From the UHGV virus genome UHGV-1359486: a stretch of 37,770 bases of DNA; one strand, 5' to 3'. The DNA is from a virus. The notes beneath the pieces were generated by a model. The model was given only the letters and a program-made list of their open reading frames with translations, was not told the origin of the DNA and searched no databases. Shown one piece after another: positions 1 through 37,770 of the stretch (its first letter is position 1; each line of letters starts with the position of its first letter). Position numbers and translations under genes: made by a program.

Positions 1-1055
1 TGCACGACAAATTAAAGGCCGAACAATGGCGAATTGAGCAGGTAGGGGACTTCCCGGACTATACCTATGAGGAAGCCTGCCTGCGGTGGCTTGAGGAAAA
101 AGCAGATAAAAAATCGATAGAGGATGATAAGAACTTTATCACTTTCTGGCTTGAGTACTTCGAGGGTGTCCGGCTGAAGGATATAACCGAGAATGCCATT
201 TACAAGATCATCAGTAAGATGACAAACAAGCATGCTGAAAACTGCTGGAGAAGGAAAGCTGACACAGCAAAAAGGAAGGGAAAGGAGGTGCCGCTGTTTA
301 CATCGAAGCCTGTCACTACGGCTACAAAGGCGCGATACCTTTCTTTCATTAAGGCGCTACTCAGAGCGGCAGAAAGAGAATGGAAGTGGATAGAAAAGTC
401 ACCTGTGATAAAAATCCCATCTATTCGTGATCGGAGAGTCCGGTGGCTTGAGCCTGTCGAGGCGAAAAGACTGATTGATGAATGTCCTGAGCCATTAAAG
501 TCAGTCGTCAGGTTCGCTCTGTCAACCGGCCTGCGTCGTTCGAACATACTTAACCTTGAGTGGCAGCAGATAGACATGCAGCGGAAAGTGGCATGGATTT
601 ACCCTGAAGACAGTAAATCAGGTAAAGCGATCGGTGTAGCCCTGAACGATACCGCATGCAGGGTTTTGCGCAGCCAGATTGGTCGCCATCACAAATGGGT
701 ATTTGTCCACACTGATCCGTCATACAGGAATGACGGAACACCGGTTGCGGCAGTAAGAAAGATGAGGCCGGATTCTAATACAGCATGGAGAGCAGCATTA
801 AAAAGAGCCGGTATCGATGATTTCCGTTTCCATGACCTGAGACACACCTGGGCAAGCTGGCTGATCCAGTCTGGCGTTCCGCTTTCAGTGTTACAGGAAA
901 TGGGCGGGTGGGAGTCGATAGAAATGGTGCGCAGATATGCCCATCTGGCACCAAATCATCTTACCGAACATGCGAAGCAAATAGATGCCATTTTTGACAG
1001 TTACGTCCCAAATACGTCCCAAGGTGAAAAACTGGCATCGGGAGATAATCACTAA
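1..1055 (+). CDS. int: Tyrosine integrase, 3' part (continues from 37662..37770)
   Basis: Open from position 3 without start; C-terminal catalytic motifs HDLRHTWAS and MVRRYAHL (R...HxxR...Y); close to P22 Int as recalled. Confidence 0.9.
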
Positions 1056-1070
1056 GTCTTTGATAAGTAA

Positions 1071-1120
1071 TGGTGCCGGATACCGGATTCGAACTGGTGA
1101 CCTTTTCATTACGAAACCGA
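1071..1120 (-). other. attP core: 3' portion of a tRNA gene (anticodon-loop-like TTCGTAA, T-arm GGTTCGAATCC, acceptor 3' strand, CCA); no D-arm/5' half present
   Basis: Reverse complement reads ...TTCGTAATGAAAAGGTCACCAGTTCGAATCCGGTATCCGGCACCA, 16 nt after int stop; loop suggests anticodon CGU (tRNA-Thr), the site used by P22-family integrases. Confidence 0.6.
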
Positions 1121-1292
1121 AGATTTATTAAAATACAACACGTTACACCGCATCTTTTCTCGCTCTCACGTACCAAGATGCATAAAGTTACCCGCTGATA
1201 CGCAAGCATGCAAAATGTTCCGCGTCCCAAACTCGTCCCAATACCCCTTCTCCTGCTATACTCCCATCATCACCCACCACTCCGAATCTAAC

Positions 1293-1517
1293 ATGCACAA
1301 TATAGCCAACCTCCCACAAGACGAAAAAGACAAAATTAATGCCGATTTAGCCGCATCCGGTATCGCGTACAAAGAAAGACTCGGACTGCCGTATGATCTG
1401 TACGAAACAGAAAACCAGCAGCCCGAGCATTTACGCCCGTACTTCAGAGAGAGGCTGGAGCACTACAGGGAGATCGGGAAAAGGCTTCCGCGTGGGTTCG
1501 AGTATGAGAAGGAGTGA
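1293..1517 (+). CDS. Hypothetical small protein (74 aa) next to attP; start uncertain (track ORF 1215..1517)
   Basis: ORF only; no convincing Shine-Dalgarno. Confidence 0.3.
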   Translation: MHNIANLPQDEKDKINADLAASGIAYKERLGLPYDLYETENQQPEHLRPYFRERLEHYREIGKRLPRGFEYEKE

Positions 1518-1598: not shown

Positions 1599-2663
1599 AT
1601 GATAACAAAAGAACAGAAAATTGACTGCATAAATTATGCAAAAGCAATAGGAATAATTGCGGTTGTTATTGGTCATTATAAAAATGACATGTTCGATGTA
1701 TTCAAACCTTATATGTATCATATGCCTTTATTTTTCTTTATTGGTGGCATTTTACATAACGATAAAAGAAGCATTACAAATAGCATTCTAACCACCATAA
1801 AAAAACATCATTTTTATATAGTGGTTAATTATATACTAATTGGGATATTTATAATTGCAGTAAATAACTCATTTGGAACGTCATTGAGAAACCCATTTGA
1901 TGAATCAATCATTGGAACGATAAAGTATGCGGTGACATGGAATTTCCATTCCAATACGCTGTTTTTGGTTGCATGGTTTTTGTTTGCATACTCTTTAATA
2001 TTTGTTTTATTTTCAGTGATGATTAACAAAATAACAAAAGGTAAATTACCTATATTTCTAATTTCAATTTTTCTTGGTGTTATTGGTTACTACGTGGCGG
2101 TTGAGATGTATGCTAAAAGTGAATTGTTTTATCTTAACTTATTAAGTCAGGTTTTGGTTGGGTCAATGTTTTATGGCATAGGAGTATCAATAAAGGATAG
2201 GTTTTTTTCATTGCTCAACCCATTCGCCTTTGTTGTTATATTAATGGCAATACTGACATTGGTTAAACTTGATTATATAGGAACGATAGGAATGTCGTGG
2301 AGTAATTACAATAAAGGGTTGTTTAACCTATTGTTTACACCAGTGGCATGTATTTATTGTGTATTTTTTGTTTCTTACTCATTATCAAAATCAATCGAAT
2401 TCAAGACACTATTGCTCATCGGAATGAATACAAAATCAATAATGTCATATCACTTAGCGGCATTTGTTATATTAGATATATTTTTCAGTTACATTGGGAA
2501 GTATGAAATATCTAACATAAGCGCATTGAATCATTTCAATACATACAAGGTATGGGTTATTTACGTTTTATTTTCAATATTCGCCTCAATCTATTGCGAG
2601 AAGATATTTATACATCTGAAAGATAAGTCGCTGCTAATCGCAAAAAGAAAACTATTGGATTAA
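1599..2663 (+). CDS. Acyltransferase family 3 integral membrane protein (O-antigen acetyltransferase-like; probable lysogenic conversion gene)
   Basis: 354 aa, about 10 predicted TM helices, N-terminal motif INYAKAIGIIAVVIGHY typical of acyltransferase_3; very AT-rich; same position as oac in Sf6-type phages. Confidence 0.6.
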   Translation: MITKEQKIDCINYAKAIGIIAVVIGHYKNDMFDVFKPYMYHMPLFFFIGGILHNDKRSITNSILTTIKKHHFYIVVNYILIGIFIIAVNNSFGTSLRNPFDESIIGTIKYAVTWNFHSNTLFLVAWFLFAYSLIFVLFSVMINKITKGKLPIFLISIFLGVIGYYVAVEMYAKSELFYLNLLSQVLVGSMFYGIGVSIKDRFFSLLNPFAFVVILMAILTLVKLDYIGTIGMSWSNYNKGLFNLLFTPVACIYCVFFVSYSLSKSIEFKTLLLIGMNTKSIMSYHLAAFVILDIFFSYIGKYEISNISALNHFNTYKVWVIYVLFSIFASIYCEKIFIHLKDKSLLIAKRKLLD

Positions 2664-31991: not shown

Positions 31992-32787
31992 CATCAGCAA
32001 TGATGACTATCACAACGGCCCCGGGATAAGTAAATCGCAGCTGGACCTTATCGAACAATCACCGGCTGACTTTATCTGGCAACGGAATGCCCCGGTGGAT
32101 GAGGAAAAAATAAAGGCTCTGGATTTCGGGACCGCTGTTCACTGCCTTTTGCTTGAGCCTGATGAGTTCAATAACCGGTACAGGATAGGGCCGGAAGTAA
32201 ACAGACGCACATCCGCAGGGAAGCAGGAAGAAAAGGAATTCTTCGAAATGTGCGAAAAAGAAGGAATCACGCCAATCACCCATGACGACAACAGGAAGTT
32301 GATGATCATGCGGGATAGTGCCATGGCCCACCCTATCGCCAAATGGTGCCTTGAAGCTGAAGGAAAAGCCGAGAGCAGCATTTACTGGAATGACAAGGAA
32401 ACGGACATTCTTTGCCGGTGCAGGCCGGACAAACTGATAGGACAACACGGATGGATTGTCGATGTGAAAAGCACCGCGGACATGTCCCGCTTCGAACGCG
32501 CTTTTTACGATATGCGCTATCACGTTCAGGACGCGTTTTACTCAGACGGATATAAGGACCTGTCCGGAGAGTTACCGGTGTTCGTATTTCTCGCGGTCAG
32601 CACAACAATCGACTGCGGAAGATATCCGGTCCGTGTATTCATTATGGATGATGTGGCAAAGGATGCCGGACGGTCCGCATACAAACAAAATCTCAGAACA
32701 TACACCGAGTGCATTAAAACGGATGAATGGCCCGGTCTGAGAACACTATCACTGCCACGCTACGCAAAGGAACTGAGAAATGAGTAA
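31969..32787 (+). CDS. RecE-type exonuclease (nuclease domain only; PD-(D/E)XK)
   Basis: GIYDDISNDDYHNGPGISKSQL, SSIYWND, CRCRPDKL, GWIVDVKSTAD, YHVQDAFYSDGY match the C-terminal nuclease domain of E. coli RecE as recalled. Confidence 0.8.
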   Translation: MQPGIYDDISNDDYHNGPGISKSQLDLIEQSPADFIWQRNAPVDEEKIKALDFGTAVHCLLLEPDEFNNRYRIGPEVNRRTSAGKQEEKEFFEMCEKEGITPITHDDNRKLMIMRDSAMAHPIAKWCLEAEGKAESSIYWNDKETDILCRCRPDKLIGQHGWIVDVKSTADMSRFERAFYDMRYHVQDAFYSDGYKDLSGELPVFVFLAVSTTIDCGRYPVRVFIMDDVAKDAGRSAYKQNLRTYTECIKTDEWPGLRTLSLPRYAKELRNE

Positions 32788-33589
32788 CCCACCAATCGCA
32801 CAGGCGGACCTGCAAAAAGCACAAGGGACCGCGGTTAAAGAAAAAACAAAAGACCAGCAGCTAATCCAGTTCATAAACCAGCCAGGCATGAAAGCTCAAC
32901 TAGCAGCCGCCCTGCCGAGGCATATAACACCGGACCGCATGATCAGGATTGTCACCACCGAGATACGGAAAACTCCATCACTGGCAACCTGTGACATGCA
33001 AAGCTTTATCGGCGCTGTTGTTCAGTGCTCGCAACTTGGCCTTGAGCCAGGTAACGCATTGGGCCACGCCTACCTCCTTCCGTTCGGCAATGGTAAAGCG
33101 GCATCAGGGCAATCAAATATTCAGTTAATTATCGGATATCGCGGCATGATCGACCTCGCCCGCCGATCCGGTCAAATTATCAGTATATCGGCCCGCACTG
33201 TGCGCGAAGGTGACAGTTTTCATTTTGAATATGGCTTAAACGAGGACCTTACACACGTACCCGGCGAAAATGACTCGGGCCCAATCACCCACGTTTATGC
33301 AGTGGCCCGCCTGAAAGAAGGTGGTGTTCAGTTTGAGGTTATGTCTTTCTCTCAGATTGAGAAGGTCCGCGATTCAAGCAAGGCCGGTAAAAATGGTCCA
33401 TGGGTATCTCACTGGGAAGAAATGGCGAAAAAGACCGTCATCCGCCGCCTGTTCAAATATCTGCCGGTATCTATCGAGATGCAGAGGGCCGTCATTCTGG
33501 ATGAAAAAGCAGAGGCCAACGTGGACCAGGAGCATGCATCTATTTTTGAAGGTGAGTACGAAACTGTATCGCCGGAATCCGCGGGGTAA
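32780..33589 (+). CDS. recT: RecT-family single-strand annealing protein
   Basis: 269 aa; LLPFG, IGYRGMIDLARRSG motifs; coupled downstream of the nuclease. Confidence 0.85.
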   Translation: MSNPPIAQADLQKAQGTAVKEKTKDQQLIQFINQPGMKAQLAAALPRHITPDRMIRIVTTEIRKTPSLATCDMQSFIGAVVQCSQLGLEPGNALGHAYLLPFGNGKAASGQSNIQLIIGYRGMIDLARRSGQIISISARTVREGDSFHFEYGLNEDLTHVPGENDSGPITHVYAVARLKEGGVQFEVMSFSQIEKVRDSSKAGKNGPWVSHWEEMAKKTVIRRLFKYLPVSIEMQRAVILDEKAEANVDQEHASIFEGEYETVSPESAG

Positions 33590-36675: not shown

Positions 36676-37056
36676 ATGAACAAATATAGTGACAAATCAG
36701 ACTTTGAGATTAATAAGGCTGTGGCTGTTAATATTAATGGCACTGACTCTGTTTTAGAAAAGTTCGGTAGAATATATATCAGTGATGGCGATAGAGGTGC
36801 GATGGTGAGCTTCTCCCCATGCAACAACCCAGCGGACGCATGGCCTATTATTTTAAAAAACAGAATCAGCATTATCATTCCAGGGAATGAATATAGTGAT
36901 GGTTACAGCACTCCATTTGCTGCAAGTGGATTTGATGATGTTTCTCATATAACCAGAAATACATATTATACAGATGAGGAATCATTCAATCAAAACCCAC
37001 TACGCGCAGCAATGGAAGTATTCCTGATGATGAAAGAGGCGGAGAATGGTAAATAG
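36676..37056 (+). CDS. Hypothetical protein (126 aa)
   Basis: ORF with ATG. Confidence 0.5.
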   Translation: MNKYSDKSDFEINKAVAVNINGTDSVLEKFGRIYISDGDRGAMVSFSPCNNPADAWPIILKNRISIIIPGNEYSDGYSTPFAASGFDDVSHITRNTYYTDEESFNQNPLRAAMEVFLMMKEAENGK

Positions 37057-37228
37057 TTACCACTGCGAAGCATGCAACAAGCCACTTAATGAGGATGAGC
37101 TGCTTTATTATGGATTCACCTGTGAAAAATGTGAACGTCATTTCATTACTGAGCATGAAGGAAATAAATTCAAAACCGCAATATCGCTCATCAGGCTCTA
37201 TTTCAGAAAGGTAATTTACTCAGCGTAG
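37046..37228 (+). CDS. Small zinc-ribbon protein (60 aa)
   Basis: CEAC...CEKC motif pairs. Confidence 0.45.
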   Translation: MVNSYHCEACNKPLNEDELLYYGFTCEKCERHFITEHEGNKFKTAISLIRLYFRKVIYSA

Positions 37229-37235
37229 GTGACCA

Positions 37236-37445
37236 ATGACACCACAGGAAGCAGAGAACGGACGCAGACGAATAGCAAGGGAATGCCTGAAGGAATTAAT
37301 GCAGTACACATCAGACGAACAACACACCGCAATACTCGACAAATACACACCGAAATTCAAACCACTTAATCACCTGCGCTTTCCGGCAAAGAGAGTGCTC
37401 GGGTATTACGTGCGTACGTTACAGAAGGAGATGAAGGATGGATAA
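37236..37445 (+). CDS. Hypothetical protein (69 aa)
   Basis: ORF ends overlapping xis start. Confidence 0.45.
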   Translation: MTPQEAENGRRRIARECLKELMQYTSDEQHTAILDKYTPKFKPLNHLRFPAKRVLGYYVRTLQKEMKDG

Positions 37446-37770
37446 AGTCACGATGACACGCGACGAGGCTGCTAAATTTATCGGCGTAAGCCCTGATACG
37501 CTTACGTCATGGTGCCGCGCCGGACGCATTTCGTATCAGCGGAAAGACCCGTTCAAAAAGAAGTCACCCTATCTGTTTACAGAGTCAGCCTGCCTTGCGG
37601 CACTGAGCAATCCGATCAACACTATCGCCGAGAGCGAGATTGATGTGAAAGGAGATCACAAATGTCAATCTTCAAACGTGGTAACTCTTGGTATTGCGAC
37701 TTCGCGACACCTGGCGGCAAGAGAATTAAAAAGTCGCTTGGTACGTCCGACCGGAAGCAAGCCCAGGAGC
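37438..37770 (+). CDS. xis: Excisionase, 5' 111 codons (frame closes at window positions 13-15)
   Basis: GAAGGAG RBS; HTH-like [41 protein letters not shown] resembles P22 Xis; overlaps int start. Confidence 0.7.
37662..37770 (+). CDS. int: Tyrosine integrase, 5' part (continues at 1..1055)
   Basis: [48 protein letters not shown] continues in frame into window position 1. Confidence 0.9.

Follow-up and report, generated by a model that had tools for sequence, protein, structure and literature searches.

Just past the stop codon of the integrase gene int, the viral genome analysed here (the window, 37,770 nt) carries on its minus strand a stretch that reads like the 3' part of a tRNA gene, which raises the question of whether this is the core of a phage attachment site, attP, and if so which bacterial gene it targets. 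The best answer, the probability of which is put at about 0.94, is that window ~1000-1245 is the attP of a temperate P22-like Morganella phage, integrating via a 45-bp tRNA-Thr(CGU) core. Integration at the 3' ends of tRNA genes in a way that restores the gene was known as early as the 1980s. As it is long known and has been catalogued thousands of times (PMC4383910), there is conceptually nothing new at this locus: the feature is an ordinary, well-understood textbook arrangement, the P22 arrangement in a different host. What is gained is the assignment of the host genus Morganella to a P22-like phage that otherwise had no placement (its nucleotide identity to members of the phage collection does not exceed about 78%), together with an exact integration site, which aids the calling of prophage boundaries and the design of integrating vectors for Morganella.

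The tRNA fragment downstream of int

Read on the minus strand, window 1115..1071 gives the 45 nt TTCGTAATGAAAAGGTCACCAGTTCGAATCCGGTATCCGGCACCA. Counting back from the CCA end, the anticodon loop is TTCGTAA with the anticodon CGT (Thr), and after it come TGAAA (anticodon stem, 3' side), AGGTC (variable loop), ACCAG-TTCGAAT-CCGGT (T-arm), ATCCGGC (acceptor stem, 3' side), the discriminator base A and finally CCA. The int stop codon occupies 1053-1055 and is separated from the core by 15 nt, in agreement with an earlier note on this DNA that had the fragment starting at the sixteenth base past the stop; the TTCGTAA loop with its CGU anticodon, also pointed out there, can be read directly from the minus strand. 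The T-arm string quoted in that note, GGTTCGAATCC, is absent, one base having been misquoted for AGTTCGAATCC, and the span of 1063-1125 that it gave was rightly located and slightly too wide, the identity block being 1071-1115. A 32-mer of the fragment occurs once in the window with 0 occurrences expected, and all 45 of the 45 bases match a real tRNA-Thr(CGU) gene; the fragment is far beyond chance.

The 5' half, the D-arm, the 5' strand of the acceptor stem and the 5' strand of the anticodon stem are all absent beside the fragment, and the 31 nt upstream bear no resemblance to the 5' half of the host tRNA. ARAGORN calls no tRNA at this position, and Rfam finds none either locally (E<=10) or in the whole window at the gathering score, returning only a chance match to mir-29 (E = 3.7); the lack of an Rfam tRNA match is consistent with a fragment rather than a full tRNA. 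The absence of a D-arm and 5' half, which had been noticed from the letters alone, is therefore upheld. With the anticodon loop, T-arm and CCA end intact, the minus strand might be thought to encode a functional phage tRNA or tRNA-like RNA, but this is scarcely credible given the missing strands and the negative ARAGORN and Rfam searches, and the tRNA-equivalent 76 nt fold no better than shuffled sequences (z = 0.32), whereas the host tRNA folds its acceptor and anticodon stems. Elsewhere in the window, ARAGORN reports a 97-nt 'tRNA-Gly(tcc)' at 32908-33004 (minus strand), inside a 269-aa ORF at 32780-33589 (plus strand); as there is no Rfam tRNA in the window at the gathering score, this is most likely a false positive.

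On the plus strand the same segment presents one terminator-like site, a stem at 1081-1099 followed by ACCTTTTCAT, and the complement of the T-arm could act as an intrinsic terminator of int, besides or instead of being an attP core. This seems unlikely, since a single site is to be set against 0.9 expected in shuffled sequences, the stem is weak (6 pairs, 3 of them G-C) with a short T run, and a terminator would leave both the exact identity to the host tRNA and the prophage junctions described below unexplained.

The Morganella tRNA gene and the prophage junctions

The 45-mer is identical at 45/45 positions to the 3' part of the tRNA-Thr(CGU) gene of Morganella morganii, so that the search for a bacterial tRNA sharing this 3' segment, which had been proposed as a check, gives a clear match. 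Identity sets in with the opening base of the anticodon loop (tRNA position 32), and the preceding base is T in the phage and A in the host. Identity blocks that start in the anticodon-loop region are the class A of Islander (PMC4383910), and the window fragment falls into this class. Among the GTDB species representatives (100,044 bacterial and archaeal species) the exact 45-mer is confined to Morganella, where it is found at 5 places in 4 records named Morganella morganii; it is also present in 6 IMG/VR prophage contigs, in full tRNA-Thr(CGT) genes. At 10 of these 11 places (L001-L007 and L009-L011) the 45-mer forms the end of a whole tRNA-Thr(CGU) gene, in which it follows GCCGGATTAGCTCAGTTGGCAGAGCAGTTCA. 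Upstream of the host gene are genes for a beta-eliminating lyase and a Trp/Tyr permease. A search of 5,426 E. coli genomes gave no copy of the 45-mer and no match to window 1040-1240.

In five lysogens (L002, L003, L006, L007 and L010), with an Int 98-99% identical to that of the window, the int-side junction runs from the 5' half of the host tRNA through the 45-mer into the int-side arm of the window. Homology to the window, as seen with blastn, spans xis and int in all five and ends exactly at 1115, where the host 5' half begins, and ARAGORN calls an intact tRNA-Thr at each of these junctions. The suggestion that the fragment is a phage copy of a tRNA 3' end that restores the host tRNA is thereby supported. 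The far end of a prophage is visible in the lysogen Mm1 (L008, on the same scaffold as L007), where the other arm of the window, 1116-1537, leads into a further copy of the 45-mer that stands alone and draws no tRNA call from ARAGORN. The bases flanking the two copies differ on either side, which sets the length of the direct repeat at exactly 45 bp. An intact tRNA at one end of a prophage and a displaced fragment at the other are seen together in this one lysogen only, and the segment, for whose duplication at prophage ends the earlier note had suggested looking, is thus seen at five int-side junctions and, in Mm1, at both ends. The two 45-mers of Mm1 (NZ_VKKS01000001.1, 705,600-760,000) are 54.3 kb apart, compared with 37.8 kb for the window; the prophage may be a larger mosaic, or the interval may include an element in tandem or gaps in the scaffold. 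The possibility that L008 marks the start of a complete second tandem element was rejected, as a short remnant of an int 3' end is followed there by chromosomal genes. In the IMG/VR prophage contigs no second copy of the core was found, not even its 27-nt 3' piece, so the far ends of these prophages were not recovered, and a scan of viral contigs for the P arm joined to the core gave nothing.

This locus often carries decayed int and tRNA-adjacent remnants (L009, L011, L008 and L017), and the window fragment could be imagined to be an inert scar with no role in integration, either a phage tRNA gene in decay or host DNA carried off when a prophage excised imprecisely. This is largely refuted by the five lysogen junctions, which fall exactly at the edge of the fragment, window 1115, and the 45/45 identity to the host leaves no sign of decay. 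The fragment is also placed between conserved arm repeats, in the same position as the core of the P22 attP, and the phage arms are separated at the two prophage ends in Mm1. A scar is therefore very improbable, and the reading of the fragment as the attP core is retained.

No truly unoccupied attB was seen, the tRNA being followed at each Morganella site examined by a prophage or a remnant of int. In L009 the remnant is ~75 nt of int 3' end, diverged in sequence, and in L017 it measures 26 nt. L011 was considered as an unoccupied attB and rejected, as the 112 nt after its tRNA match the interior of int (window 924-813, 84% identity).

Layout of the attachment site and its surroundings

A tyrosine integrase gene adjoins the attP (Table 1). 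The product of the int ORF, assembled on the rotated genome, matches Pfam Phage_integrase (4e-45) and is 69% identical to the phage L/P22-type Int over 386 aa in a gapless alignment; it can be assigned on sequence grounds to the P22/DLP12 Int group. Xis matches Pfam HTH_17 (1.3e-6) and is 41% identical to the Xis of phage L/P22 over its full length (E = 4e-26).

Table 1. Positions of the integrase module and of the attP elements in the window
Feature	Position	Strand	Remarks
int 5' part	37662..37770	+	first 36 codons and first base of codon 37
int 3' part, tyrosine integrase	1..1055	+	387 aa in total; gene wraps around the circular genome
xis	37438..37770, continuing to window base 15	+	115 aa; overlaps the int start by ~120 nt
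P' arm, tandem arm-type pair TTGGGACGTATTTGGGACG	1004..1022	-	inside the int 3' end; predicted Int-binding repeats
IHF-consensus box TATCAAAGACTTA, H'-like, candidate	1053..1065	-	between the core and the P' arm sites; overlaps the int stop
attP common core	1071..1115	-	45-nt copy of Morganella tRNA-Thr(CGU) positions 32-76, anticodon CGU through CCA
Putative core-type Int sites and strand-exchange region ATGAAAAGGTCACCAGTTCGAAT	1087..1109	-	by homology to the 23-bp P22 attP site
Degenerate third arm-type site TTGGTACGTGAGAGCG	1161..1176	-	aligns with TGGGACGTGTGAGCG of the P22-type attP (phage L); putative function
P arm, tandem arm-type pair TTGGGACGAGTTTGGGACG	1223..1241	-	also present in the Mm1 far junction L008

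The motif TTGGGACG occurs four times in the 37.8-kb window, all within 1004-1241, and the paired pattern twice where 0 occurrences are expected. Homologous pairs of the form TGGGAC(A/G)TATTTGGGAC are present in the attP of phage L and in that of the Proteus phage, and the P' arm pair is kept in the lysogens. The third site is one base off the GGGAC motif. The IHF consensus WATCAANNNNTTR is matched at 2 places in the window, this box being one of them, and such a count is by itself no more than chance would give; the attP of phage L and that of the Proteus phage both have ATCAAANACTTA unchanged at the corresponding position. Within the core, ATGAAAAGGTCACCAGTTCGAAT aligns with ATGCGAAGGTCGTAGGTTCGACT, annotated as the 'P22 attP site' of phage L (PMC8022706). 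The bases AAGGTC and GTTCGA are conserved between the two 23-bp sites while the centre differs, which is the pattern expected of core-type sites around an overlap. From this we infer that the 23-bp site may be read as 8+7+8 bp, and the exchange point would probably be the GTCACCA segment (window ~1095-1101, minus strand) at the boundary of the variable loop and the T-stem; the core is invariant in every copy seen, with no polymorphism marking the exchange point. In a three-way alignment of the window, phage L and Proteus phage vB_BPM-V3 the same attP blocks are found in all, and with Int, Xis, arm repeats and an IHF-like box the predicted anatomy of the lambda/P22 type appears complete.

Following the paradigm of lambda and P22, the N-terminal domain of Int would presumably bind the TTGGGACG repeats on both sides and its core-binding domain the core, such that Int would bridge the arm-type and core-type sites, with IHF bending the DNA at the conserved box beside the core. 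Strands would then be exchanged between attP and the identical 45 bp of the chromosome. Since the exchange would take place inside the 45-bp identity, the tRNA gene would be rebuilt unchanged: the 31 nt at the host 5' end and the 45-bp core would together form the gene at the int end, and a bare 45-bp copy would stay at the other end of the prophage. Xis would be expected to direct the reverse reaction.

The window is the circularly permuted genome of a P22-like podovirus. The portal, terminase, coat and ejection proteins and the tailspike, with its P22 head-binding domain, are encoded at 73-78% nucleotide identity to Lederbergvirus-like phages. In a nucleotide search of the phage collection the att region has no close relative, int alone being matched at 73-83% identity. 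A contig from an independent sequencing run (L020) covers window 36866-37770 and then 1-1671 at 100% identity, spanning the circular join, and the stretch from int through attP to the theta-like gene is found at 100% identity in four contigs from independent runs, L020 included. The continuity of L020 across the join, together with the three further runs, indicates that the order int, tRNA fragment, accessory genes and tailspike is a genuine unintegrated attP configuration.

Adjoining attP, a gene at 1293-1517 (plus strand) encodes a 74-aa homologue of DNA polymerase III theta (PF06440, E = 2.6e-25); a longer ORF for it starts at 1215 and overlaps the P-arm repeats. The identical theta protein recurs in L015-L024, where several different integrases and host junctions are its neighbours, and the annotation of Proteus phage vB_BPM-V3 puts a theta gene at the equivalent position. 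In the related P22-like contig L018 (194-1594) this theta-like gene is separated by 12 nt from the end of a different 387-aa integrase, of the Arm-DNA-bind_3 type, and the tRNA-Thr core is missing; here the int/att module has been swapped and the neighbouring gene retained. The theta gene seems to be a mobile accessory gene that moves together with att regions. Between attP and the tailspike, a gene at 1599-2663 (plus strand) encodes a membrane acyltransferase (Acyl_transf_3) and lies in a stretch of 33-39% GC, compared with ~49% for the rest of the genome. It occupies the position at which P22 and phage L have gtrABC, and relatives (L015-L017) have gtrA/B/glucosyltransferase genes or other acyltransferases there. 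It is probably a lysogenic-conversion gene that modifies the O-antigen.

Related integrases and known systems

Other integrases are found at the same tRNA gene. A second type, a 355-aa ORF with 54% identity to the window Int, has exactly the same 45-bp core (L004 4338-4500; L005; L017 9700-9900; L008 3434-3560) and different arm repeats (CGTGCCAT-type), for example GCGTGCCATATTCGTGCCAT instead of TTGGGACG. L017 is a far junction of this second type, with its own arm, the 45-mer and host DNA, and in Mm1 a short second-type remnant forms the host-side flank of the window-type prophage. A third, P4-like integrase, with Arm-DNA-bind_3, Phage_int_M and Phage_integrase domains (L001 7448-8617, minus strand), lies ~170 nt downstream of the same tRNA (L001 8787-8862) in another Morganella prophage contig. 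The presence of three integrase types at one tRNA-Thr gene marks it as an integration hotspot. This, and the occurrence of thrW-type, argU-type and window cores within one Int group, is a modest added value of the analysis.

With identities of 68-72%, the window Int stands roughly as far from the thrW-type as from the argU-type enzymes, and the 13/46 positions at which its core differs from that of P22 fall mainly within the presumed overlap and at the outer positions of the core. It may be that the window Int represents a third specificity branch of the P22/DLP12 group, part of a natural series with the second-type and P4-like integrases at the same tRNA, a proposal for which the odds seem evenly balanced. 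If true, this would provide a natural series for the independent evolution of core and arm specificity in tyrosine integrases.

In lambda, the paradigm, the tyrosine integrase has arm-type sites distinct from its core-type sites, with pairs of arm sites on both sides, an IHF box beside the core, and Xis. The window shares with it the arm pairs flanking the core, a candidate IHF box by the core and Xis, whereas the attB of lambda is intergenic rather than a tRNA gene, its core is 15 bp and the sequences are unrelated. Among genomic islands, restoration of the tRNA and a displaced fragment left behind are likewise described, and Islander contains 3,760 islands that have a 3' tDNA fragment, with 2,083 assigned to the anticodon-centred class (PMC4383910).

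The Int of the DLP12 / epsilon34 type integrates into argU, tRNA-Arg(UCU). For epsilon34 the same logic, a tRNA 3' fragment directly past int and restoration of the gene, applies to argU, with an Int ~30% different from that of P22 (PMC2629481). Integrases of the DLP12 type, including those of Escherichia phage PhiR29_1 and Proteus phage vB_BPM-V3, are 70-72% identical to the window Int, slightly closer than the Int of P22 (68-69%). The argU-type attP has the same layout and GGGAC arm repeats, but its tRNA fragment is of the Arg(UCU) rather than the Thr(CGU) type. Since equally close integrases (70-72%) adjoin Arg(UCU)-type fragments, the target is not predictable from Int similarity alone.

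The P22 / phage L / ST64T module integrates into thrW of Salmonella, a tRNA-Thr(CGU) gene and so the same isoacceptor as that of the window. The Int of phage L, 387 aa long and annotated in its record as 98% identical to P22 Int, is collinear with the window Int, and its xis overlaps the start of int as in the window. The phage L record also has a 'tRNA-like fragment' on the opposite strand, ~15 nt past the int stop, again as in the window, and in both the identity block runs from the anticodon loop to CCA, over 45 bp in the window and 46 nt in phage L. The phage L stretch of 46 nt presumably matches the 3' end of E. coli thrW. GGGAC-type arm pairs on both sides, a single third site and the ATCAAANACTTA box are common to the two, as are, beyond attP, the tailspike and genes for O-antigen modification, the latter probable in the window. 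In phage L, the tRNA-like fragment just past int rebuilds thrW upon integration (PMC8022706). The collinear Int, the homologous Xis and the arm repeats and IHF box at homologous positions all point to a P22-type module in the window.

The differences lie in the sequences that are recognised and in the host. Only 33/46 bases of the window core are in common with the P22/thrW core, so the window does not have the core sequence of P22 or the specificity that goes with it, and the full tRNAs of Morganella and thrW have 58/76 in common. The arm consensus is GGGACG in the window compared with mostly GGGACA in the P22 type, and the arm-binding and core-binding regions of Int are the least conserved with respect to the P22 type (~60% identity). 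The host is Morganella for the window and Salmonella for P22. In E. coli and Salmonella, thrW is found in the proA-thrW context, unlike the surroundings of the Morganella tRNA. The expectation of a 'tRNA-Thr(CGU) target, as for P22' thus holds for the isoacceptor, Int, Xis and the layout of attP, with the qualification that the host and the core are different. Taken with the lack of any match in E. coli, the divergence of the core indicates that the window carries not the P22 attP but a separate specificity variant that works like P22.
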